A DNA stretch of 64,000 bases. Origin: Candidatus Chisholmbacteria bacterium RIFCSPHIGHO2_01_FULL_52_32 (GTDB lineage: Bacteria; Patescibacteriota; Microgenomatia; UBA1400; Chisholmbacteraceae). The notes beneath the pieces are model-generated. The model was not told the origin of the DNA and searched no databases. It was given only the letters and a program-made list of their open reading frames with translations. Positions 38,842 to 61,277 of this stretch are shown piece after piece. The position numbers were made by a program, and so were the translations under genes. The stretch's first letter is position 1; each line of letters starts with the position of its first letter. The stretch lies in NCBI GenBank assembly GCA_001816585.1, contig MHCJ01000006.1, forward strand, positions 64,040-128,039. Direction: 5' to 3'.

Positions 38842-39117
38842 TTTTACTCACCTCCCCTTTAACTAAAAACCTCTCTGTAAAGAGAGGTGAATAGAACCTT
38901 TTCCGACAGAGATCGGACTAATCCTTCCCTTTACAGGGTTGGGTTTAGCACCGTAGCTCTTATGAGATCGGTTGCCGGATGGATCATCGAGCCAACTCTC
39001 TCCCCATCGCTCTTGATTGGCTATTGAATCTTGTACCTAAAAAAATGATACAAGTCAATATGGTTTTTTGAATATAATTCTTGCTCCCCGGGCAGGATCT
39101 CCCTGATCCAAAAAACA

Positions 39118-44224: not shown

Positions 44225-44419
44225 ATGGAAGATTTTGCCAACTACCTGTACCGGAGTAGAACCAGAAAAGGGCGTTATGTAAGCCAACAAACCCTCTCCA
44301 AGCTGTCCGGCTACAGCCAGACTTATATATCTTTGATCGAAACACGGAAGGCGAGACCGTCAAAGAGGTGTATGAGGGTAATTTTAAGCGTTTTAGATGC
44401 TAATCTAAGATTTTCTTGA
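44225..44419 (+). CDS. XRE-family helix-turn-helix protein
   Basis: QQTLSKLSGYSQTYISLIE HTH; sits at GC-content transition. Confidence 0.5.
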   Translation: MEDFANYLYRSRTRKGRYVSQQTLSKLSGYSQTYISLIETRKARPSKRCMRVILSVLDANLRFS

Positions 44420-45085
44420 AACAAACCCGATTATTGCATTATCTATTAGTTTAGGCACCGTTGTATTCCAAAGAACGCCATCAACATCCTTTAAAGTTAG
44501 CTTAAGTTGCTGGGTAATCTTGTAAAGCTCCCTCATTAAAATTGAAAACGATTTGAATTCTTTTATCTCTTCATTATGATAATTGAAGTAACCGTAAAAA
44601 AAGTTCATTGTGTATCGCCTATCCATCGGGGGAAATAGCTTTGGTAACAAAAAATGGAGTGTTTTTGATACTCCAACAATTTTTGACTTTGACTTCATAA
44701 TTTTTAAACCCAAGAACAGTTGTCTTGTTATCTCCAAAACCTGTTCTAGCTCAATCTCGGTCAATCGCTGAAGTTCTTTACTGCTTAATTGAGTAACAAT
44801 TCCACTATTCTTCCGGATGGATTCCGCAAAATCATTAAAGTCAGCCAATCTTGCCCCCCGCATGTTCATATTCCACGAAACCAAAGTAACATAACATAGC
44901 TCTATAAAATCTCTGTCACCAGTTAGCTTTACTGTCTGAAAATCTACTTGCTTTTGACGTTCGAAGATCTTCCGGTAGAGATAGATTGACGGGGTTAAGG
45001 ATCGAAAGTTTTTATTGCATATAGACACATATTTGAAAAATTGTTCTCTTGATTCTGTTAATTTGTCTATATTTTCTGTTTTCAT
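44405..45085 (-). CDS. hypothetical protein (226 aa), last gene of nuclease triad
   Basis: ORF abutting Cas4-like nuclease gene (no gap). Confidence 0.5.
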   Translation of the reverse strand: MKTENIDKLTESREQFFKYVSICNKNFRSLTPSIYLYRKIFERQKQVDFQTVKLTGDRDFIELCYVTLVSWNMNMRGARLADFNDFAESIRKNSGIVTQLSSKELQRLTEIELEQVLEITRQLFLGLKIMKSKSKIVGVSKTLHFLLPKLFPPMDRRYTMNFFYGYFNYHNEEIKEFKSFSILMRELYKITQQLKLTLKDVDGVLWNTTVPKLIDNAIIGFVSRKS

Positions 45086-45754
45086 TTAATCTCCAAACGC
45101 TTTAGAGCCCCAGTTGCAAAACTCACAAGCAAAATCGCTATGGCGCTTGGGTTCTGGGCCTTTTAGACACTCTACGGCATCCTTGAATAACTTTTCTGCT
45201 CTAGTTATATCTGTTTCCAGCTTTTTAGGCTCGACTTCAAAGTCCACTCGGCCGTTTTCTGCTACTTGTCTGGGGAAATAATAGACCAGATAAGCAAAAC
45301 TGGCTGTTTTATAACCGTTTTTCATCAACAAATAGCAATAGATATCCAACTGGTGCTGGTAATAACTGCTGGTATCTTCTTTTAACTCATAACCCCGGGT
45401 TTTGTAATCCAAGGGGATATAAACGCCATCATCAACCAAGCAGTCATCCAAAACACCTTTAAGAACAGCGTCAAGCTCTTTGTCCTCATATGTCAGCCCT
45501 TCCCAGTTACTCTGCCATGATTTTAAGAGTTTCTCATCGTCAAACAGCTTACCAATTACTTTTCCTTCAATTTCTGGCGGTAACTTACCCTGTCTGCGGT
45601 ACTTGTCATAGTATTTTTTGATAACCCCATCCATGCCTCCCGGTAGAGATGGAAAAATTCCTCTTGGCCTGTGAATATTTTTGTTAAACTGCAACCAAAA
45701 GCACCTCGGGCACTCCATGTATAGGCTAATTGTTGAGGGTGAGAGTTTTATCAT
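45086..45754 (-). CDS. Cas4/RecB-like PD-(D/E)xK nuclease with cysteine cluster
   Basis: N-terminal YMECPRCFW, core IPLDYKTRG (D...DxK), QxxxY (QHQLDIY), C-terminal CEFCNW. Confidence 0.7.
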   Translation of the reverse strand: MIKLSPSTISLYMECPRCFWLQFNKNIHRPRGIFPSLPGGMDGVIKKYYDKYRRQGKLPPEIEGKVIGKLFDDEKLLKSWQSNWEGLTYEDKELDAVLKGVLDDCLVDDGVYIPLDYKTRGYELKEDTSSYYQHQLDIYCYLLMKNGYKTASFAYLVYYFPRQVAENGRVDFEVEPKKLETDITRAEKLFKDAVECLKGPEPKRHSDFACEFCNWGSKAFGD

Positions 45755-48254: not shown

Positions 48255-51200
48255 TTAATTTTCTCCACTCCAGTCTTTACAAAGTAAATTTGCCTGTTCC
48301 AATACGGTTTGTGTTGCGCTTTCCTGTTTGTCCGGTGGGTAGTTGTACTTTCGTAAAAGCTTCTTAACATACACTCTTAATTTTGCTTGAACGTTTTCTT
48401 TGATTGTCCAGTCAATGGTGGTGTTTTTACGAAGCATGGACACAAGCTCTCTGGCAATCTGCATGAGTATTTTATCTCCCAACTCCCGGATGGCGCTTTC
48501 ATTGACGCATAGCGCATCATAAAAGGCCACTTCCTCGGGGCTAAGCCCAATCTCTCCACCTCGTTCTTTTTCTTTCTTAATTTTCTTGGCCAGTTCAACC
48601 AGTTCAGCGATCACTTGGGCGGCTTCGATAGTGCGATTCTGGTATTTCTTAATTGTCTCCTCAAGCATCTGAGCAAAAGAGCGTGATTTTACCAGATTAG
48701 ACCTCATCATAGTGACAATTTCATCATTTAGCAGGCGCTTAAGCATCTCAAAGGCCAAATTCTTATGAGGCAAATCTTTAACTTCAGCCAAGAATTCATC
48801 AGAAAGAATGGAAATATCCGGTGTTTTAATTCCTGTTGCCGAGTAGATATCAATAACCTTATCCGAAACAATCGCTCCCGAAACTATCTGTTTGATTGCC
48901 TCCTGATAATCTTCGTCAGTTGGTCCTCCGCCACCGCCCCCGCCGCCAGATTTTCTAATACCAGCTTTTACCGATTGGAAAAAGGCAACTTCGTCTCTGA
49001 TTTTCAGAGCCTCCTCATCGGGTACGGATAGGGAAAAGGCAAATGAAAGCTCAGTTACAGCCTGGATGTACCGCTTCTGCCCGTCTTCCAAGCCGAGAAT
49101 ATAATCCATAGCCGAAGCAATAAGTCTAGTACGCTCAGAAGCCGAGCCTTTTAATTTATCTTTATACTCAAACCCGTGGTACATCTGACAAACAACCTCG
49201 TACTTTTCAAGCATGATCCTGACTGCTTCTTCTTGGGGTATGGCTACTTTCTTGCGGTCATTGTCAGTGTAGTAAGCCAAAGCGTCCTTCAGCTCCGGTG
49301 CAATACCCAGATAGTCAACGATCAGTCCTCCTTGTTTGTCTTTAAAGACTCTGTTGACTCGAGCCACAGTCTGCATCAGTCCATGACCTTTCATTGGTTT
49401 GTCAATATACATGGTGTGCAGACACGGCACATCAAAGCCTGTCAACCACATATCCCGAACAATGACTAATTTTAATTTATCGTTGGGGTCTTTCATTCGA
49501 TTGGCTATATCGTGCCTTACCTGTTTGGTGCGGATATGTTTTTGCCAGTCCAAAGGATCAGCGGCTGACCCGGTCATCACTACTTTCAAAAATCCATCCC
49601 GATCATCATCAGAAGCCCAGTTTGGTCGAAGCTTAACCAGTTCGTTGTATAGCTCAACCGCAATCCTCCGGCTCATTGCCACCACCATACCTTTGCCGTC
49701 AACTGCTGAAAGTCTAGTTTCAAAATGTTCAACTAAATCCTTGGCGATAAGAGAAATACGCTTTGGAGCTCCAACCAAAGCTTCAAGCCGGGCCCATTTG
49801 CTCTTAAGCTTTTCTTTCTTTTCCACTTCTTCTCCTTCTGTTAATTCTTCAAACTCCGGGTCAATTTTAGGCCGTTCTTCTTCCTTTAAAGAAATCTTAG
49901 CCAGCCTTGCCTCATAGTAAATCGGTACTGTTGCTTTATCCTCAACTGCCTGGGAAACATCATAAACGTCAACATATTCTCCAAAAACTGCTCTGGTGTT
50001 TTTGTCTGTCAGCTCAATTGGAGTGCCGGTAAAGCCGATAAACGAAGCGTTGGGAAGTGCATCTCTCATGTGGCGGGCAAAACCATCGATAAAGTCATAC
50101 TGGCTACGGTGAGCCTCATCGGCAATAACCACAATATTTGTCCGCTCCGAGAGCATCTGGTAGTCATGTTTGCCGTTTTCGGGGAAAAACTTTTGGATAG
50201 TGGTAAAAACCACGCCACCAGAAGCAACTTTTAAGTATTCTTTTAATTGTTCCCGGCTTTCTGCCTGTTTGGGAGTTTGCCGAAGTAAACTTGAACAGCG
50301 GGAAAAGGTTCCAAACAACTGATCGTCCAAGTCATTTCTGTCTGTCAAAACCACAATCGTCGGGTTATCAAGTGCCTGGATGATTTTTCCGGCATAAAAG
50401 ACCATAGTTAAACTCTTGCCTGATCCTTGCGTATGCCAAACCACGCCACAGCGCCGGTCTCCTTCTTTTCCGGTTGCTTCCATTGTCTTAGAAACAGCCT
50501 TATTGGTAGCATGATACTGATGGTAAGCAGCTACTTTTTTGCTGATTTTCTCACCATCAGTCTCAAAGACCACAAAGTTATTGATAATATCCAAAAGTCT
50601 TTGTTTTTCAAAAATCCCTTTTAACAATACTTCCAGCTGAGGCACCGAGTTTGGCGCTAAATCCTGACCCTCAATAGTCCGCCACCTGGTAAACCACTCC
50701 ATGTTTGAAGAAATCGTTCCGGCTCTGGCTTCCAAACCATCGCTGATGATTGCCAGTTCGTTATAGGCAAAAAGAGAAGGAATTTCGCTTTTGTAGGTTT
50801 GAATCTGGTTAAAAGCGCCTTTAACAGTAGCTCCGGTATCTGCCGGGTTTTTCAGCTCGATAACCGCAACAGGAAGACCATTGATAAAGATAACGACATC
50901 CGGTCGTCTTTGGGCTCTGTTTTCGATAACCGTGTATTGGTTGACTGCCAGAAAATCGTTTTTATCAGGCTTGCTCAAATCCAAAAGTTTTACTTTATCT
51001 CCGGCAATTGAGCCATCTGTCCGTTGATATTCAACATCCACACCGTCACGAAGCATGGCATGAAAGGCTTTGTTGTTTACTGCCAGTTGAGGGCTTAAAG
51101 TAGATACTCGAAGCACTTTGCGTAAAGCATCTTCTCGGGCTCCCTCCGGTATATCCGGATTCAAACGGTTAATCGCATTTTGTAATCGTTCTACTAAAAC

Positions 51201-51341
51201 TACATCAGAGTAGCTTTTACGTTCCGGCCTTTCACCATCTGGCGGTGGAGCAATCTCTGGTCCTCCAACCACGCTATACCCAAGCTCTGAAAGCCACTCC
51301 AGCGTTGCCTGTTCTAAATCTGATTCTGTATATTTAGACAT
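48255..51341 (-). CDS. hsdR: type I restriction enzyme R subunit HsdR
   Basis: HsdR N-terminal domain, SF2 helicase motifs [26 protein letters not shown]; 1028 aa. Confidence 0.9.
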
Positions 51342-51343
51342 AT

Positions 51344-53776
51344 TTAGTAAACTTTTTCAGTTATTTTTATAAATTCGGCAATGTGATTATCTAGTTCAGA
51401 GATTGCCGATGGAATTTCTTTGTCTGCATGTAACAAATTTGAGTAACTGCAATACTTATAAATATTTCTTATTCTTTCCAAATCGGTATCGTTCAGCTTG
51501 ATAAGTTTTCCTTTACCAGATATTAAATTGTCGGTAACCTGAGTAAAGTTATCCTCTTTGTTCCATAATAGTAGTTCGTTTTTGATAAATCTTTCTATGG
51601 CTAACCGCAAAAGCTGACCATATTTCAAAGCTATTGCCTCTAGGCATAATGTGCCCTTTTTTGCCTGCTCTGTCATCTCCTGATAACACTGTTTTACATC
51701 CGCAAGTAAGTCAAATCCAGGATCAGAGTAGATAAAGCTTCCACCGAATTCTTCTCTATTTCTAGCTATACCAAACGTGATCGGGTTGGGATTCTCACAC
51801 TTTGATAAATACTTATAAAAAAGCGGGTGATGGGTTAATACGACAATCTGCCCAAAGGTTTTAGTTTTTTCATGGATGAGATCCGATAGTATCTTCAGAT
51901 TGGGAGCGTCAAGACTAGTTATTGGATCGTCTAGAATCAAGATAACGTCTTTTTTGTCACCAATATTCTCGTTCAACGCAAAGAAAAACGCCAAGGAAAC
52001 CATCTGTCTTTCGCCTTCTGATAAACCTTGCTTAAAAGCTCTTTCCTTTCCGCTTTTATCGTATATTCTGAAAGAAAAGGGGTACTCCTTCGTCTTCGGT
52101 GAAAGCTTAATATGCTTAAGTGTAAAATTGAGGTTGAAACGACCAATGATTTTTATCATTAAGTCAATGAGAGATTGAGGTATTTTCTCTGATAAATACT
52201 TTTCTAAATTGTCTTCTAACAAATCTACTTCCTGATCTAATTTTTCTTTTTCAGACTTTACCTTCTCGTGCTTTTTAATTTGCTCAACTCTTTCTCCTTC
52301 AACAAATGCGTAGATTCCTTCAAGTTCAGCAATCTTGTTGTTTACTTTTTGATGCTCTAGGTCAGTGTTCCTTTTTACCGAATATTTCTGTTTAAACTGG
52401 TTGATTTTTTGGTTCTTACTATCAATAAATTTGTTAAATTCAGTTATCAACTTGTCGAGTTTAACAAAAAAAGCATTTAATTCATCATAAGCGGAATCGG
52501 TACAATATTTTGGTTTTTCTAAAGTTTTCAGTTGCTGTAAAGCCCGCTGAAGTATTGATATTGCCTGAGAGGCTTTACTGCATATTTCAAATTTCTTATT
52601 GTAAGAAATCTTCTCGTCAATATTGTAAAGATCTTTAATTTCAAATTCCTGATTTACTTTCTCAAAAGAAGAAAAAGCCTCGAGTACATCTTCTGGTAAA
52701 TTAGTTATGAAGGTAAGATATTCCGTAATTTCTTGTTCAAGATTTTGAATATCGCTTAGGTATTTTTGCTTCTCGTTTTCATATGTTTTGTCAAATACCT
52801 GTCGATAATATTTGATGACAGCTGTTGCACCAGATAACGGTTGCATACACAGTGGACAGTTTTTGTTCTTTGTATCTGTAATCCTTTTATAATTTTCATC
52901 TTTTTCTAGGAATGACTTATGTTGCTCATAATGTGCTTTTATTAAAGAATCCGCACCATCTCCAGCAGTTTTTTTAATATCCCTTTCGAAAAGTTCAATA
53001 TAGACCTTCTTTGAAGAAATCTGGGGTCGGTCTGACAATTGATTTATCGTTTGAATCCCTGCTATTTGTGCTGACTTGTTTAGTAGTTTTGTGAGACGAT
53101 CCTTGTCTTTTTTTTGATCTGAAATTTCACTTAAAGTCCTTTTGGCAAGTGCTCCTTTTTGATTTTTATTTAAACTTTTATATTTGTTAAACAAGACTAT
53201 CTCTTCCGGGGAGACTGTTAGGTGCAATATGTCCTTGTTGTTGCTTTCAAACTGACTTAAGGCCATCTTTTTTTCCGAAAGATCCATCTTTTGTTTATTT
53301 GCCTGAGCGTCTAAGCTGATAATGAGATTGCCAGCGTTTTGGGTGTGATATCCCTGGATATTGCTAATCGTCCCGTGGGAGTGGATATTTTTATCTATAA
53401 AGTCAACATCAAAAAATAGGATATGTTTTTGTTCTTTTGGTGTATCATCCCATTTTCCTTGCTCGAAGCGGTATGTCTTCGTTGATATATTCCTTTTTAT
53501 ATAAGTTTTTCCATTTGGAGCTGTGTTTTTACTTAACTCAACGGTCTCAAGCTCAACTTCTGACAATACGGGTTTATCGCCTTCAAATCTTTGAAAACCA
53601 GTTAAGTCTTTCAGTATTTCACAGACTGAAGATTTCCCAGACCTGTTTTCTCCAAAGAAAACTGTAAAAGGAGAAAATGAACACTCTCTTCCAGTTTTAT
53701 CCTTACATAAACAATCCCACTGAAAATCTTGAAACGGTTTGTAATTTTTTATAGTTTTTATCTTCTTAATTTTCAT
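51344..53776 (-). CDS. RloC-like Rad50/SMC-type ABC ATPase with coiled-coil CPxC zinc hook and C-terminal putative anticodon-nuclease-like region
   Basis: Walker [10 protein letters not shown], signature LSEGERQ, Walker [15 protein letters not shown]-loop VVLTHH; ~450-aa coiled-coil insert with CPLC; embedded in hsd operon. Confidence 0.6.
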
Positions 53777-55052
53777 AATCCCTTACTCTTAATTTTCCAC
53801 TCATTAACCTTGGTAAAAGTGAATCTCTTATAGATGTTAGACGCTCAATCTCATCATGTGTTTGTCGATATTTAGAAAACAATAAATCTATAAGGCCACT
53901 AAATTCGGCAAGTATTTCTTTTTTCGGAAGAACTACAGGAATTGAATTTAAATTGTTTTGATTAAGTTTTGGTTGAACAGCTCCTGTGATATAAGGTGCA
54001 ATATTTGTAACTTCAAGAAAAAGCTTTAAAACTTCAGTTGAAAATCCATTTTTACCCTTTAGTACATGGGCATGATTGTTGACCCAAAATTTTCCCCATA
54101 CATACTGTGTGACTGCAGTTTCTTTGTTGGTGATTACCGTTCCGTCTTCTCCAACCAATAAATATATTCCGTCAAAAATGAAGTCATTAACATGATCCAT
54201 TACGCCAGTTGCGCCGTAGTACCTAAAGTCTCCTTTGCGTTTCTCTCTTTCTCTATTCGATAGAGGTATTCTTTTTGAGTCAAAATTTTCTACAACATTT
54301 CCAAAGTGTCCAGCTTCCCACCCCTCCGGTATCTCTCCTAATTCCGAATTCACCATTTTGCCACCGCTTGATTTGTAAGGCCTACCATTTTCATCGGGGA
54401 ATTCAAAATCTACAAACCATTGCTTAAAGAGTGCCTTGCCGATTTCCTCAAGCGTATTGTTCATTTTCCGGTTGAGCTCGATCTTGTCATCAAGAGAAGA
54501 GAGGATCAAAATGATTATCTGTTGCTCGTGAATACTAGGTAATGCAAGCTTTATCAATTCAATAATTTGCCGGTTAGCGATATTGACTTGAACACTTCCT
54601 GTTGAGCGAGATGTTATTGAAGTAAATCCATATCTTGAGGTAAAAAAATACTTTAAATAGTCTGGTAATATCTTTTCAGTGTCAGGCCTTAAAGCTAAGA
54701 GCGCCTGGCTGATGATTCCTTTTGGGTCTTCGTCCGTAATGATTGATACCTTACCAAGCGTACCCGAACAACTAATGATCAGGTCATTTACTTTTACTTG
54801 AAATCTTTTTAGTTCTTCAAATTTTTCTTCATCTATATAGTATCTAAAGTCTCGAACACCATATATTGCGTGTTGTTGCTCATAGACAGGTATTCCTTCC
54901 GATTTTAGCTCAGGTCTTCTTAGCGCTGAACCGAAAGGCCCTCTGATATATCCTTTTTCTGACAATACATCCCTTAATTCAACTAGCTCCCAAGTTTGTG
55001 GAATTTCGCCGATTTCGGTTTGTTTGTAATTTGTTTTAGATGTCATATCCAA
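53766..55052 (-). CDS. hsdS: type I restriction-modification specificity subunit HsdS (two TRDs)
   Basis: Conserved HsdS N-terminal and central repeat regions; overlaps hsdM by 17 nt. Confidence 0.85.
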
Positions 55053-56562
55053 CTTTTTTTAAATTCTCCTTTATTTTCTGTTCCAACTCTTTGGATTGTT
55101 TGAATTGCACTGAAAGTTCTTTTGTTAATCTTGCCATTTTTTCTTCGAATACTTCGTCATCTTCCATTTCAAAATCTGTACCCACATAGCGGCCTGGAGT
55201 TAAAACAAATCCATTCTTTTCTACTTCTTCAATCGTGGCAACCTTGCAAAAGCCCTTTTTATCCTCATACTTGCTGTTCTTGTTTCTCCAGTTGTGGTAG
55301 GTTTGGGAAATCGTGGCTATATCTTCATCGGTCAATTCCCGGTGTCTGCGGTCGATCATCTTACCCATCTTGCGTGCGTCGATAAATAGGATTTCATTGT
55401 GCCTGTCCCGAAACTTGTTGTTGTATCTGTCTCTTGAGACAAACCAAAGACATGCTGGAATTTGCGTGGTATAAAAAAGCTTATCCGGCATGGCGATAAT
55501 ACAATCCACCAAGCCGTTCTTAACCAGATTTTTTCTAATTTCTCCCTCTCCTGAAGTGTTTGACGAGAGCGACCCGTTAGCCATGACAAATCCGGCAATC
55601 CCTATTGGTGACAAATGATGAATAAAGTGCTGGATCCAAGCATAGTTGGCGTTTCCTGTCGGAGGTGTACCGTATTTCCAACGCATATCCTCACGTAATC
55701 TTTCACCGCCCCAGTCGCTGATGTTAAACGGAGGATTGGCTAGGATAAAATCGCTTTTTAAGTCTTTGTGCTGATCGTTGTGGAAGCTATCACCAAGCAA
55801 GATATGCTTACTCTCAATTCCTCTTATGGCAAGGTTCATCTTACAAAGCCTCCAAGTGGTAGCGTTTGACTCCTGACCAAAGATAGCGACATCGTCAAGC
55901 CTGCCGCCGTGAGTCTCGATAAACTTCTCGCTCTGAACAAACATGCCTCCTGATCCGCAACACGGGTCAAAAACACGGCCTTTGTAAGGCTCGATCATGT
56001 AGACCAAAAGTCTTACTACCGAAGCCGGGGTAAAAAACTCTCCGCCGCCCTTGCCTTCAGCGCTGGCAAATCGGCCGATAAAGTACTCATAGACTCGTCC
56101 AAGTACATCTTTTGACCGGCTTTCTTTATCTCCCAGTCCAATTGTACCGATAAGATCGATCAATTCTCCTAAGCGCTGTTTGTCTAAAGTTGGCCGGGCA
56201 TAATCTTTGGGAAGCACGCCTTTAAGCGAGAGGTTTTCTTTTTCAATTGCCACCATGGCATCGTCAACCAGTTTGCCTATTTCTGCTTTCTTGGCATTTT
56301 GTAAAAGGGAATTCCAGCGGGCTTCTTGGGGTACCCAGAAGACGTTTTCTGCTAGGTATTCGTCTTTGTCTTCGGGATCTGATAATTTGTCAGCTTTTAA
56401 TTTTTCGTGGAGTTCTTCGAAGGAGTCGGAGATATATTTAAGAAAGATAAGGCCAAGTACAACATGTTTGTACTCCGAGGGGTCCATGTTGTTTCGCATT
56501 TTGTCGGACGCCGCCCAGAGTTTTTCCTCAAACCCCAGATTGGCCGAGGTTGTTTTTTTCAT
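55036..56562 (-). CDS. hsdM: type I restriction-modification N6-adenine DNA methyltransferase HsdM
   Basis: HsdM N-terminal domain, FxGxG SAM motif, catalytic NPPF ([12 protein letters not shown]). Confidence 0.9.
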
Positions 56563-57001: not shown

Positions 57002-57850
57002 ATGGGTCATAAAAATATTTTTGCTTCCGATGGTTGCCTAGCCCAACTTGTTTTCTTTGTTTTTGTGTTGATCTGTTTATTTTCCTACCCACCTTACGGA
57101 TTGTTACTGGGTATCGGAATCCTCTTTATAAGATTTCAACTTCATAAAAAGAAAAAGCTTGAGAAACAAAAAATAGAACTCGAACAAGTTCAAAAGGAGA
57201 TGGATGAGGAAGAGAAAATTAACAAAAGATTTGATGAGATGGATAAAGTTATCAACTCCATGATTAAAAAGGGAAAGATAGATAAGAATTTTATTAAAAC
57301 GCAGTTCGCTGATCTGATCCCAGCTGATATATATTCATCAGAGAAGGAAAAGGATAATCTTATTGATGAACACATAAAAAGACGGTTAAAAGGATTGGCT
57401 TATGAAGAGCGAGAATTGCGAAAACATGAGGCAGATACTTTTATGGCAAGATCGTATCTTCAAAGAAAGAAAATACAAACTCTAAAAAAGAATTTAAGAC
57501 AAGTTGATGATTTATTTGATTTAACACCTGTCGAGTTCGAGAAATGGGTAAAACGCAATATCTTTGAAAAAAAAGACTGGGAGGTAACGGAAACAAAAGC
57601 CACCGGTGATGGCGGTATAGACCTAATCCTAAATCGACAAGATGAACACTCCATAGCTCAATGTAAAAGGTTCAAAAAAACAGTTGGTGAACCGCTTATA
57701 AGGGATTTCTATGGTGTAATGATAAGTGAAGGCGTCAGTAAAGGTTATTTTGTAACTACCGGCCTATTTTCCTTATCTGCTCTTAAATTTGCAGAAGGCA
57801 AACCAATTGAAATGATTGACAGGCGAGTTTTAGCTCAAAAATACCTTTAA
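57002..57850 (+). CDS. membrane-anchored restriction endonuclease (Mrr-cat domain, PD-(D/E)xK) with coiled-coil linker
   Basis: N-terminal TM helices, Lys/Glu coiled coil, C-terminal GDGGIDL...IAQCKRF...GYFVTTGLFS Mrr-cat motifs. Confidence 0.7.
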   Translation: MGHKNIFASDGCLAQLVFFVFVLICLFSYPPYGLLLGIGILFIRFQLHKKKKLEKQKIELEQVQKEMDEEEKINKRFDEMDKVINSMIKKGKIDKNFIKTQFADLIPADIYSSEKEKDNLIDEHIKRRLKGLAYEERELRKHEADTFMARSYLQRKKIQTLKKNLRQVDDLFDLTPVEFEKWVKRNIFEKKDWEVTETKATGDGGIDLILNRQDEHSIAQCKRFKKTVGEPLIRDFYGVMISEGVSKGYFVTTGLFSLSALKFAEGKPIEMIDRRVLAQKYL

Positions 57851-58120
57851 TTTCTTTCAATACCCACCTTATGATTTGGTCGATATAACGGGCTAATTCC
57901 AATTTTTCCTATTGACAAAAGATTTACTCAACTGTTATCATTTATACAGCTTCTCTCAAGAAGCATAGGTTTAGTAAAGAGTACCTCTTCGTAGGAGCAA
58001 AAGGTCGAGTAAGGCCGGAGACTCCTTTTTTATTGCTTCCAAAAGTCCTTAGTTTAAGTTGTTGGTGATGGAGACATGATCTCCTGAGTGTCAGTTTTAA
58101 TAAATTGCTCAGGAGGTTTT

Positions 58121-58756
58121 ATGTCAAAACAATATAAAAACAAAAAATATTTAAAGCAAAAATATGAAGAGTTAGGTTCAACAAGAAAAGTCGGTAAATT
58201 CTTTGGAGTTTCCAATGGCACGATATGTTATTGGATGTCAAAGTACCGGATACCAAGAATCCCCAGATTAGATTTACAGGATAACAACTCAGGAAAAGGC
58301 AGACGAGGAGAGATTTATATTGTCGATCACCCTTATTTTCGAGGAAAAATAATTGATCTTGGACTAATTGACGATAAGTCAAAACGTGATCTTATCTGGG
58401 ACTCAAACTCCATTGACGTTAAAACTAGCCATTACAGGAGGCCAATTTTTAGAACAAAAGTAAAAAGGCATCGCTGTATTTTTTATATTTGCCTTTATTA
58501 CGATTATAAAGTCAGTGAATTCGTTCCGGTTGAGGTTTGGATTACTCCTGCACGTATTGCTTCCCATGAGAACATCGCTCCTGGTTTTAAGAAAAAGTCA
58601 AAATTTGACAAATATCGTCTGTCAAATCTCAGGGGAAAAGCTTTTAGCACTGATGAAGAAAAGAAATATAACCAGGAGTTCGAAAAACGTTACCAAAAAC
58701 TAATTGATAAAAAGAAAGCTCAAAGAACTAGAAAAAGCAAGGAGGTATCTCAATGA
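58121..58756 (+). CDS. HTH-domain protein of unknown function, first gene of Topo-VI-like operon
   Basis: AGGAGG RBS; N-terminal HTH (LGSTRKVGKFFGVSNGTICYWM); 4-nt overlap with downstream GHKL gene. Confidence 0.45.
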   Translation: MSKQYKNKKYLKQKYEELGSTRKVGKFFGVSNGTICYWMSKYRIPRIPRLDLQDNNSGKGRRGEIYIVDHPYFRGKIIDLGLIDDKSKRDLIWDSNSIDVKTSHYRRPIFRTKVKRHRCIFYICLYYDYKVSEFVPVEVWITPARIASHENIAPGFKKKSKFDKYRLSNLRGKAFSTDEEKKYNQEFEKRYQKLIDKKKAQRTRKSKEVSQ

Positions 58757-60060
58757 AAAAACCACAATTCGTCCGTAAGCTTTTTACCACCAGTCGACTT
58801 CTGGAGTTTTTTACCGAAAAAGAACTATCGATGCAAATAGGTCACAGTAAAGAATGGTGGCCAATTGCTCTTTTAAAAGAACTTATTGATAACTCACTTG
58901 ACGCTGCAGAAAATATAAACAAACCCCCGGAAATCCAGATAGTAATTGCTGAAAACTATTTTTCTGTCGAAGACAACGGTCCTGGGATCCCTGATAAAGT
59001 GATTAATCGTTCATTGAACTACACCGTAAGAGTGTCGGATAAAAGCTATTATGTGAGTCCCACCCGAGGACAACTGGGAAATGCGCTTAAATGTGTATAT
59101 GCCGCCCCTTTTGTCGCTAATGGTGAAATAGGCAAGATTGAAATAGTGAACGGTAAAAAAACGTATATGATCGAGGTTGTTTTGGATCGAATAGACCAGA
59201 AACCAAAAATAAAGTTAAACAAACTCGATGAAGGCAATTGTAAAAAAGTGACAGTTTTTTACACAGATTCAGCAGGCTTACTTTTAACACCGAAAGTTTC
59301 AAATATTTACAAAACCCCAATGGACGCAGAAACCCTCGTAAAAAGATATGCCATATTTAATCCACATGCGACATTCAATTTAAACGGTAAAACGTATGAA
59401 CCTTCCAGCACAGTTTGGAAAAAGTGGTTACCAACAGAGCCAACTTCACCACATTGGTATACACCAGAGCAACTCAAAACGCTGATTGCTGCATATTTGA
59501 GCATGGATCGAGACAGCGAAAAAACCGTAAGAGAATTCATTGCAGAGTTTAGGGGTCTTAGTGGTACGACTAAACAAAAAGAGGCCACAGATGATGCAGG
59601 ACTCTCAGGTAAGAGGTTGTGTGACTTGATCGTCAACAACGATATACCTTTAGCACCAATTGAGAAACTTCTGATGTCGCTTAAAAAACATAGCAGACAA
59701 GTAAAAGCCACTTCTTTAGGTTCAATCGGTGAAGAACATCTTAAAACTAGAATGATGAATGACTATCACATAGCCCCTAATAGCTTTAAGTATAAAAAGA
59801 TAGCCAAGATCGATGAGGTAACTAATTTACCACATGTCATAGAAATTGGTTTTGCTATCTATGACAAAGACCATGAGCAAAATTCCCGACAAGTAATATC
59901 TGGTCTAAATTGGTCACCAACATTTGATTTTTTGAGTGAGGCAAAAACAATGTTGTTTGAGAACCACATAGAACCACAAGATCCAGTTTGTGTGGTTTGT
60001 CATATCGCCCGGCCAAAATTTGAATATACCGACAAAGGAAAGGAGCAAGTATGTCTTTAA
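58753..60060 (+). CDS. Top6B-like GHKL (Bergerat-fold) ATPase
   Basis: N-box LKELIDNSLDAAE, G1 box VEDNGPGI, G2 box SPTRGQLGNAL. Confidence 0.7.
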   Translation: MKKPQFVRKLFTTSRLLEFFTEKELSMQIGHSKEWWPIALLKELIDNSLDAAENINKPPEIQIVIAENYFSVEDNGPGIPDKVINRSLNYTVRVSDKSYYVSPTRGQLGNALKCVYAAPFVANGEIGKIEIVNGKKTYMIEVVLDRIDQKPKIKLNKLDEGNCKKVTVFYTDSAGLLLTPKVSNIYKTPMDAETLVKRYAIFNPHATFNLNGKTYEPSSTVWKKWLPTEPTSPHWYTPEQLKTLIAAYLSMDRDSEKTVREFIAEFRGLSGTTKQKEATDDAGLSGKRLCDLIVNNDIPLAPIEKLLMSLKKHSRQVKATSLGSIGEEHLKTRMMNDYHIAPNSFKYKKIAKIDEVTNLPHVIEIGFAIYDKDHEQNSRQVISGLNWSPTFDFLSEAKTMLFENHIEPQDPVCVVCHIARPKFEYTDKGKEQVCL

Positions 60061-61277
60061 CCAATGATTTACAATCGGCTTTTAAATCGACTTCTAGAGA
60101 TTGGAAACAGAAGAAAAAGGGGCTTAGACGGCAAGAAAGCATGAGTTCATGGGGTTTATCAAGTTTACGCTCATACCGTCCACCACGGCAAACAGTAAGA
60201 GACGCTGCTTTTAAAGTTATGAAAGATGCAATAAACAAAGCAAGCGAAAATGGACGTTACTTTGCTAATGCTCGCCAGATCATGTATGCTGCGAGGCCTT
60301 TAGTACTTGAGATAACGAGGGGCGAAATATGGAAAGATTCAGCATACTTTACTCAAACTTTACTTAAAGATTATATCGAACAATATGGCGGTGGAGAAAA
60401 GATTGTTTGGGATGCTCGGGGACATTTAATCGAACCACACACAAAAAAGGTCATACCACTAGGAGGTATTGATGTATTAAAGTACATCAACGACTGGAAC
60501 AGTAAATTTGATATATACGAAGATAGTATTGTACCGAAAGGTATTAAAACTGTTGGACCTAAACTCAGATACGGTGGCGTGCTCTTTATCGAAAAAGAGG
60601 GATTTTCAGAAATTCTTGATGACGCCAGAATTGCGGAAAGATTTGATATCGCCATCATGTCAACCAAAGGGCTCCCTGTTGGTGCTGCATGTAGATTAGT
60701 TTCAGAGCTGGCCGCAGGATCTAAAATTCTTGTCCTTCACGATTTTGATTTGGCTGGATTCAAGATTCTCCAAACTCTAAAGTGTGGTACAAGACTAGCA
60801 CCTAGCACGGAAATTACAGATATTGGCCTACGAATAGACGATGTTTTAAAACTCCAATCTGAGGTTGTTGATTATAAACAATGTATTGATCCAAAAATTT
60901 ATTTACGAAATTGCGGTGCAACCAAAGAAGAATGCGATTTCCTGGTTGAAAAACAAGTTTTTCAGAAAAAATGGATCGGAAAACGAGTAGAGCTGAACGC
61001 CATGACTTCAAAACAACTAATTGACTGGCTTGAACAAAAATTACTCGACCATGGTATCAGTAAGGTAATCCCCGACAAAGCAACACTATCCAAAGCCTAT
61101 CAAAGAGCTAGTTATTGCCTTACGCTTCAAGAGGAAATTGAACTAATAAAAGAAGAATTTGATATCGAAGCTGTCAAAATTCCAAAAGATCTATCCAAAC
61201 AAGTGAAAAAAAGAATAATAAATAGTCAACTCTCTTGGGATAAAGCTGTCTGGAATATAGTTTTTGGAGAAAAATGA
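60051..61277 (+). CDS. Spo11/Top6A-like protein (5Y-CAP catalytic Tyr + Toprim)
   Basis: Catalytic Tyr motif ARQIMYAAR, Toprim Glu VLFIEKEGF, DxD motif VLHDFDLAGF; 10-nt overlap with GHKL gene. Confidence 0.7.
   Translation: MSLTNDLQSAFKSTSRDWKQKKKGLRRQESMSSWGLSSLRSYRPPRQTVRDAAFKVMKDAINKASENGRYFANARQIMYAARPLVLEITRGEIWKDSAYFTQTLLKDYIEQYGGGEKIVWDARGHLIEPHTKKVIPLGGIDVLKYINDWNSKFDIYEDSIVPKGIKTVGPKLRYGGVLFIEKEGFSEILDDARIAERFDIAIMSTKGLPVGAACRLVSELAAGSKILVLHDFDLAGFKILQTLKCGTRLAPSTEITDIGLRIDDVLKLQSEVVDYKQCIDPKIYLRNCGATKEECDFLVEKQVFQKKWIGKRVELNAMTSKQLIDWLEQKLLDHGISKVIPDKATLSKAYQRASYCLTLQEEIELIKEEFDIEAVKIPKDLSKQVKKRIINSQLSWDKAVWNIVFGEK

Follow-up and report, generated by a model that had tools for sequence, protein, structure and literature searches.

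A 64,000-nt stretch of the genome of Candidatus Chisholmbacteria bacterium RIFCSPHIGHO2_01_FULL_52_32 (GenBank assembly GCA_001816585.1, contig MHCJ01000006.1, positions 64,040 to 128,039; hereafter the window) contains a complete type I restriction–modification (R-M) operon, in which an additional gene encoding an 810-aa protein lies between hsdS and hsdR. As judged from its sequence, this protein belongs to the already known RloC family of anticodon nucleases (ACNases), and it is probably an RloC-type latent RNase that acts as a back-up to restriction. To our knowledge, the RloC family has not been discussed in the Microgenomates group of the candidate phyla radiation (CPR).

The gene and its operon

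The initial annotation had placed an RloC-like gene at 51344–53776 between hsdS and hsdR without giving a strand. These coordinates are exact, and the strand is minus: the six-frame list of open reading frames (ORFs) holds an ATG-initiated ORF of 810 aa over this interval, stop codon included, whereas the plus-strand translation of the same interval contains stop codons throughout. A homology search returned 53 homologues with E-values from 0 to 5e-84, one of which is a 100% identical hypothetical protein of Candidatus Chisholmbacteria (RIFCSPLOWO2_01_FULL). Since 52 further homologues exist besides the identical one, the ORF is a real conserved gene rather than a chance ORF.

The operon is ordered hsdM, hsdS, the 810-aa ORF and hsdR, all on the minus strand (Table 1), and the ORF is one of seven closely packed genes on that strand. 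The ATG of the rloC-like gene is located within the last codons of hsdS, overlapping the hsdS stop by 11 nt and preceded by a Shine–Dalgarno-like run (AAGGGA), and its TAA is separated from the ATG of hsdR by 2 nt. The rloC-like gene is translationally coupled between hsdS and hsdR of the complete operon. A promoter and terminator scan across the operon gave sites no more numerous than in shuffled sequence. The G+C content of the island (~44–63 kb) is 33–44%, compared with 52–55% at the purA/purB side (39–43.5 kb); the lowest values, 33–37%, are found over rloC and hsdS, with hsdR and hsdM at ~43–44%. This low and uneven composition suggests a horizontally acquired, mosaic defence island.

Membership of the RloC family

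RloC proteins were defined by ABC (ATP-binding cassette) motifs common with PrrC, a coiled-coil insert with a CXXC motif, and a C-proximal Arg-X3-Glu-X36-52-His (Davidov & Kaufmann 2008; PMC2610378, PMC3458546). In the 804-aa RloC of G. kaustophilus (GkaRloC, YP_146738), activity depends on each of R692, E696 and H737, C291 has a regulatory role, and activation requires K44 and D572 (PMC2610378, PMC3458546); mutation of K44 abolishes activation of the ACNase (PMC3458546). The nuclease domain of RloC and PrrC was later assigned to the HEPN superfamily (PMC3710099; Anantharaman et al. 2013).

The 810-aa protein possesses the ABC motifs, a split head with a CXXC motif, and full-length homology to proteins named as RloC. 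Among its homologues, P0009 and P0043 are named "wobble nucleotide-excising tRNase" by JGI and P0054 carries the same name (JGI/NCBI names), which is the label of COG4694/RloC; NCBI uses it as well for a remote relative of 770 aa found by a genome scan in Fontibacillus phaseoli (L048:7998-10310). An alignment of the close clade of the 810-aa protein (A1, 26 sequences) was compared by hhalign with that of the Fontibacillus-type clade (A2, 20 sequences, the first being the F. phaseoli protein), giving a probability of 100% and an E-value of 8.9e-50 over ~780 columns at ~21% identity. In this comparison, CPLCMQ pairs with CPFCQQ, the ABC signature LSEGERQ is also aligned, R724/E728 pair with R676/E680 (the C-terminal R/E segment being matched with IRPLIE), and YSNLLHAD pairs with YSKRYHHD, so that H783 stands opposite H733, adjoining the invariant H734. 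Neither GkaRloC nor E. coli PrrC was among the matches of the genome scan, of a search started from the F. phaseoli protein or among the representatives, and the residue pattern of GkaRloC (K44/C291/D572/R692/E696/H737) was absent from the 256 proteins scanned for it. In a plasmid collection, no more than five distant matches were obtained, all named "AAA family ATPase" and of no help in the assignment.

ATPase head, helical insert and CPLC hook

A Rad50-type ATPase head split by a long insert with a hook motif, NKNCPLCMQ, had been read from the sequence at the outset, and both features are borne out by profile searches, conservation and structure prediction. The positions of the motifs (Table 1) were confirmed by translating the matching nucleotide intervals, and their conservation was counted in an 89-sequence alignment composed of the A1 clade and a second clade. 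Pfam AAA_13 matches residues 29–660 (E = 4.5e-33, 115 bits against a cut-off of 36), with SMC_N below threshold and a weak match to AAA_21 (31.1 bits against a 27-bit cut-off). Rad50 heads were the best matches in PDB sequence and profile searches (5da9, 3e-10 with the profile), together with SMC heads; no RloC or PrrC structure was detectable in the PDB by sequence or profile.

A full-length AlphaFold2 (AF2) model was built on the 26-sequence alignment, with a mean predicted local distance difference test (pLDDT) score of 79.7. It shows a beta-rich N-lobe (residues 1–123), a C-lobe of the ABC head made of strands and helices (551–684), and an all-helical domain at the end of the chain (690–809). 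Between the two lobes run near-continuous helices, 143–301 and 314–545, with short gaps only (the longest at ~240–255) and with single helices of 65, 50 and 40 residues. The CPLC motif is located in the loop 302–313, between helices 293–301 and 314–378, i.e., between the two helical arms. The first Foldseek match of the full model in the PDB was Chaetomium Rad50 (7zr1, 8e-10), followed by SMC, condensin and cohesin heads, human and E. coli Rad50/SbcC, and Lamassu LmuB.

Two histidines, H282 and H286, stand one helical turn apart (H-x3-H) some 20 residues ahead of CPLC. Both are invariant in the A1 clade, and H282 is conserved in the second RloC clade too. From their position, H282/H286 and C307/C310 could form an intramolecular Cys2His2 zinc site, either instead of or besides a Rad50-like intermolecular hook.

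Putative C-terminal nuclease domain

The catalytic triad of the RloC family, as predicted from conservation, takes the form R724-x3-E728-x54-H783 in the 810-aa protein. The initial annotation had proposed an R-x4-E...H arrangement; the three residues are indeed present and near-invariant, but the spacing between the first two is R-x3-E, as in the published definition. The likeness to ACNase domains, which it had left unconfirmed, is supported by the alignment with the RloC-named clade, in which Arg and Glu match column for column and the His lies one column off, and by a HEPN-like model. The alternative then envisaged, a C-terminus without ACNase similarity in a protein clustering with SMC, RecN or SbcC, is not what was found.

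Residues 660–810 were modelled separately by AF2 on 77 sequences (pLDDT 73.6, predicted template-modelling score 0.72), giving four long helices. In a Foldseek search of this model, HEPN proteins made up 19 of the 25 best PDB matches, with template-modelling (TM) scores of 0.40–0.62 and probabilities of 0.84–1.0. These included HepT (7bxo, 6m6u, 6m6w and 5yep), the HEPN toxin 7ae8, 4nqf, 2hsb, 1wwp and YutE (1ylm), with the sacsin HEPN domain lower. The canonical HEPN motif R-x4-6-H was not found, i.e., there is no Arg 4–6 residues ahead of H783 (C-S-Y-S-N-L-L-H), and the conserved R724 is located on a different helix. Among 1.84 billion representatives, 1375 proteins matched a profile of the C-terminal domain at E ≤ 1e-3, and 940 did so at ≤ 1e-10. 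Essentially all full-length matches are ~750–800 aa long with the domain at the C-terminus; matches of ~400 aa were considered as PrrC-like candidates, and those inspected were C-terminal fragments of RloC-length proteins with no Walker A.

Several observations weigh against the assignment as an RloC-type RNase. The 810-aa protein and its clade are described from sequence and predicted structure, and the link to GkaRloC is made through database names, motif positions and published descriptions. The AAA_13 alignment stops at residue 660, short of the C-terminal domain, and the E-values of the HEPN matches in Foldseek are weak (0.09–0.6), as for any four-helix bundle. The arms flanking CPLC are unequal (~160 vs. 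~230 residues); CPLC lies between them and may or may not occupy the apex of a coiled coil. The loop bearing H783 is of low confidence in both AF2 models, with a pLDDT below 50 in the C-terminal one. H783 also sits one column off the invariant His of clade A2: in A1 a single His precedes a residue that is small or hydrophobic, and A2 has an HH or SH dyad of which the second His is invariant. Finally, the Glu-to-His spacing of 54 is two residues past the published range of 36–52. However, this spacing is 53–55 residues throughout the A1 clade and 51–54 in most members of the RloC-annotated clade A2, and the published range, taken from 72 sequences in 2008, is probably too narrow. Judged on these alignments, the triad is regarded as present, with the exact equivalence of H783 not fully settled.

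These features of the active site bear on a related reading, in which the protein is an RloC-like ABC-HEPN RNase that cleaves a non-anticodon target, such as mRNA, rRNA or another tRNA site, comparable to RnlA/LsoA or HepT. HEPN proteins have varied RNA targets (PMC3710099), the nearest solved folds are HepT toxins rather than RloC-type wobble-nucleotide-excising nucleases, the other RloC clade has an HH/SH dyad in place of the His motif seen here, and the residues with which PrrC recognizes tRNA-Lys are not known to be common to RloC (PMC2610378). However, the full-length homology to the RloC-named clade is very strong and includes both R-x3-E and S-x3-H, and the only characterised ABC-HEPN proteins of the RloC/PrrC type are anticodon nucleases (PMC2610378, PMC3458546). 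A different RNA target is considered unlikely.

Table 1. Features of the rloC-like gene, its operon and its surroundings (window coordinates; residues refer to the 810-aa protein)
Feature	Position	Strand	Description
hsdM	55036..56562	-	Type I methyltransferase; Pfam N6_Mtase 5.9e-110, HsdM_N 5e-28
hsdS	53766..55052	-	Specificity subunit; Pfam Methylase_S 3e-27, two target-recognition stretches
rloC-like gene, 810 aa	51344..53776	-	ABC-ATPase head, coiled-coil/CxxC insert, C-terminal HEPN-type nuclease domain (predicted)
hsdR	48255..51341	-	Restriction subunit; Pfam HSDR_N, SWI2_SNF2, T1R_D3-like, T1RH-like_C; PADLOC REase_I E = 0
Walker A / P-loop GENRSGKS, G42–S49	53630..53653	-	K48 kept in 89/89
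Q-loop candidate Q146			Invariant in A1
Helical (coiled-coil-type) insert splitting the ATPase head, residues ~143–545	52142..53350	-	AF2 secondary structure
Pre-hook His, H282/H286	52919-52933	-	H282 84/89, H286 59/89
CPLC putative zinc-hook motif, C307–C310	52847..52858	-	C307 and C310 both 89/89
ABC signature LSEGERQ, 585–591	52004..52024	-	S586 87/89, G588 86/89
Walker B / D-loop, 613–623	51908..51940	-	D616, D617 and D623 all 89/89
Switch / H-loop THH, 648–650	51827..51835	-	H649 89/89
C-terminal anticodon-nuclease (HEPN-fold) domain, residues ~686–810	51347..51721	-	AF2 model and Foldseek (predicted)
R724-L-A-I-E728, Arg and Glu of the ACNase triad	51593..51607	-	R724 89/89, E728 88/89
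H783, putative catalytic His, in S779-N-L-L-H-A-D785	51428..51430	-	H783 87/89, S779 84/89
GmrSD_N/DUF262 protein, 828 aa	45751-48237	-	Directly downstream of hsdR; Pfam 3e-30, PADLOC PDC-M55C 4e-47, HEC-05
Cas4-like PD-(D/E)XK nuclease (222 aa) and 226-aa protein of no family	44405-45754	-	End of the operon
Divergent array	57002-61277	+	Mrr_cat-like 282 aa, HTH_50 222 aa, GHKL ATPase 435 aa, Spo11/Topo VI-A Toprim 408 aa
S-adenosylmethionine (SAM) riboswitch	38916-39022	-	Rfam RF00162, 57 bits, E 1.6e-10

Linkage of the relatives to R-M systems

The order hsdS, rloC-like gene, hsdR was also observed in a Woesebacteria genome (L001) and in three metagenomic contigs (L081–L083). A Saccharibacteria locus (L029) has the same arrangement within a different type I family, with an EcoR124_C HsdR and an RloC-like protein of 29% identity. 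In one of the contigs, an ORF of 308 aa that weakly matches Mrr_cat (E 0.007) separates the RloC-like gene from hsdR (L083:3082-4008), showing that the slot between hsdS and hsdR accepts further cargo. Compared with the window, L081–L083 have HsdR proteins of 87% identity and RloC-like proteins of 68–69%. In L001, HsdM (79%) and HsdR (74%) are again closer to their counterparts in the window than the RloC-like protein (47%), and HsdS is more divergent still (31%). The rate of divergence of the RloC-like gene in this conserved locus is about double that of hsdR and hsdM.

In the wider clade, the RloC-like gene is the last gene of an R-M module, or directly downstream of one, in at least 26 of ~44 loci, and the modules are of many types (Table 2); a minority of loci (L021, L036, L005, L010 and others) have no recognisable R-M neighbour. 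Most members of the clade of the window come from CPR/Patescibacteria and uncultured lineages. This linkage agrees with the report that PrrC and RloC genes are frequent in R-M operons (PMC3710099), in contrast to the earlier finding that RloC is rarely R-M linked, in 8 of 72 cases (PMC2610378, PMC3458546). The expectation that such genes lie "classically" in type I R-M loci holds for the locus in the window, but as a general statement it describes PrrC rather than RloC (PMC2610378).

Table 2. R-M modules upstream of the RloC-like gene in the wider clade
Loci	Upstream module
L002, L003	Dam-like D12 methylase
L004, L024, L028	N6_N4 and D12 methylases
L006, L007, L020	HaeII endonuclease and Vsr
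L008, P0006 contig	Eco57I/MmeI-type IIG enzymes
L011, L022, L031	EcoRI-type methylase and GmrSD_N-HNH
L023, L026, L027, L030, L032, L034	Type I/III-like helicase-methylase pairs
L039	AlwI

The diversity of these neighbours bears on a further reading, namely that the protein assists the type I R-M system as an SMC/Rad50-like ATPase, involved in DNA-end sensing, restriction alleviation or control of translocation, with a helical C-terminus that only binds protein or nucleic acid and is not a nuclease. Translational coupling within the hsd operon, the resemblance of the head and coiled coil to DNA-binding Rad50/SMC proteins, and the moderate confidence of the C-terminal model speak for such a role. 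However, R, E and H are near-invariant at the positions that are catalytic in GkaRloC (PMC2610378), and the family stands behind many unrelated R-M types, with some loci having no R-M system at all, so that it cannot be regarded as a subunit specific to type I systems. A purely accessory ATPase is thus very unlikely. Least probable is an SMC-like subunit of Lamassu (LmuB) or another multi-gene SMC defence system, or a Rad50/SbcC repair protein: in spite of PADLOC matches to LmuB (2.8e-18) and PDC-S06 (3.6e-33), LmuB structures among the Foldseek matches and an NCBIfam Rad50 match (2.9e-12, far under its cut-off), the adjacent genes are Hsd, GmrSD-like and Cas4-like with no LmuA/LmuC-like or SbcD/Mre11-like gene among them, the matches stop at ~660–668, after the ATPase and coiled-coil part of a protein that carries its own effector domain, and the Rad50/SMC family cut-offs are missed widely (the best in NCBIfam, Rad50_Sulf, reaching 45 bits against 1000, and no NCBIfam family reaching its cut-off). 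Gene neighbourhood, cut-offs and the partial coverage of the matches were the grounds for rejecting the identities Lamassu, Rad50/SbcC and AbiEii (the last from AAA_21).

The RloC-type RNase remains the preferred assignment, and the linkage pattern also suggests how it may be controlled. Because the relatives are attached to unrelated R-M systems that share no subunits, an internal switch based on DNA, ATP and the zinc hook would be likelier than a PrrC-type contact in which one particular Hsd complex silences the nuclease. Co-transfer and co-expression with some R-M system, together with a signal that failed and ongoing restriction have in common, such as DNA ends, would explain the linkage more simply. 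A more specific proposal is that the clade of the window represents a distinct RloC variant guarding R-M systems, i.e., a fast-evolving 3′ passenger of diverse R-M systems with a possible Cys2His2 site; this is conceivable, though doubtful. If true, the Cys2His2 site and the single-His active site would imply regulation, and possibly cleavage chemistry, unlike those of GkaRloC.

Proposed mechanism

By analogy with G. kaustophilus RloC (PMC2610378, PMC3458546), the protein would act as a homodimer formed through its ABC heads, each of which is predicted to be split by a long antiparallel helical arm bearing the CPLC motif as a putative zinc-binding hook. The C-terminal domain would be a metal-independent RNase of the HEPN type whose active site consists of Arg, Glu and His. 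In an uninfected cell, the zinc hook and the nucleotide state or ATPase activity of the heads would keep this RNase latent. During infection, when restriction is subverted or DNA ends accumulate, DNA-dependent ATP binding or hydrolysis would free the RNase, which could then cut the anticodon loops of tRNAs, with excision of the wobble nucleotide as in GkaRloC. The loss of this nucleotide would be a lesion that the phage enzymes Pnk and Rnl1 cannot simply religate, translation would stop, and the infection would be aborted. Within this scheme, dimerization, zinc binding, activation by DNA ends, the tRNA substrate and abortive infection are all proposed on the model of characterised relatives.

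Defence island surroundings and significance

Further genes with defence-related domains lie in and around the operon (Table 1). The 828-aa GmrSD_N/DUF262 protein downstream of hsdR contains a His-Me-like motif, EKHHIFPKNH, and a C-terminal extension of ~290 aa that belongs to no Pfam family, matches PADLOC PDC-M34B over aa 556–666, and carries FRNAVKH, a HEPN-type R-x4-H motif. Judging by these motifs, the operon may encode a second RNase-bearing restriction enzyme. The association with the Cas4-like and 226-aa proteins at the end of the operon recurs: in a Thermodesulfobacteriota contig (L033:6921-7977), homologues of both (28% and 35% identity, respectively) immediately precede the RloC-like gene, and L001 has a PD-(D/E)XK homologue after hsdR. 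In the divergent array on the plus strand, the GHKL ATPase shows a weak match to the Topo VI-B transducer domain, and the last three genes overlap or abut; the Topo VI-like A/B pair has no PADLOC match. This Topo VI-like array may be an undescribed defence module of the island. The SAM riboswitch is the sole match at the Rfam gathering level in the window, and no tRNA genes were found in these 64 kb.

The locus adds a well-preserved, operon-embedded RloC to the CPR, in Ca. Chisholmbacteria, and it shows a CPR bacterium keeping a layered defence island that comprises type I R-M, an RloC-type RNase, GmrSD-like type IV restriction, and Cas4-like and Mrr-like proteins. The occurrence of one RloC clade behind many R-M types supports the idea of the Kaufmann laboratory that an internal silencing switch makes rloC mobile without a dedicated silencer, and the R-M linkage of this clade limits the earlier generalization that RloC seldom occurs with R-M genes. 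The system would be an ordinary second-line phage defence, which opens no new question and reveals no new type of system.

Comparison with known systems

Among more distant relatives, the PADLOC families PDC-S06 (the best match) and LmuB are likewise SMC-like defence ATPases. Their alignments, however, end at residue ~650–668 and leave the nuclease domain uncovered, with the exception of PDLC04891, whose match extends to residue 783. For the split head, Rad50 is the top match among solved structures and in the PDB profile search, and Rad50/SbcC has a CxxC motif between two long helical arms as well; it differs in having an Mre11/SbcD partner, whereas the protein described here has much shorter arms and an extra HEPN RNase domain at its C-terminus.

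PrrC of the E. coli prr locus, which is linked to the type Ic system EcoprrI, occupies the same slot, hsdM-hsdS-prrC-hsdR (PMC3014915). It also combines an ABC NTPase with a C-terminal R-x3-E...H nuclease, and both proteins are presumed to serve as a translation-disabling back-up to restriction. However, PrrC is 341–416 aa long and lacks the coiled-coil/zinc-hook insert (PMC2610378), whereas the present protein has 810 aa and an insert of ~400 residues. The triad spacing of PrrC, compared by its published description, is x31 (R320/E324/H356). PrrC is, in addition, always linked to type Ic systems, while the HsdR of the window has PF11867, a HindI-like C-terminus, instead of EcoR124_C; the R-M system of the window is probably not of type Ic.

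GkaRloC is the closest counterpart. It is of similar length (804 vs. 810 aa), shares the ABC head interrupted by a coiled-coil/CXXC insert as well as the predicted ACNase (HEPN) domain at the C-terminus, and presents its key residues in the same order and at similar positions (K44/K48, C291/C310, D572/D616, R692/R724, E696/E728 and H737/H783). Within the RloC family, differences from the protein described here are the low identity of the Fontibacillus clade (only ~21–23%), a single His instead of the HH/SH dyad, the triad spacing of 54 vs. 36–52, the invariant H282/H286 ahead of the hook in the window clade, the position of the gene inside an R-M operon, and the CPR host. What is added to the known family is thus minor, namely the position behind diverse R-M systems, the fast divergence, and a single-His motif with extra His residues before the hook, and the protein stays within the RloC category.

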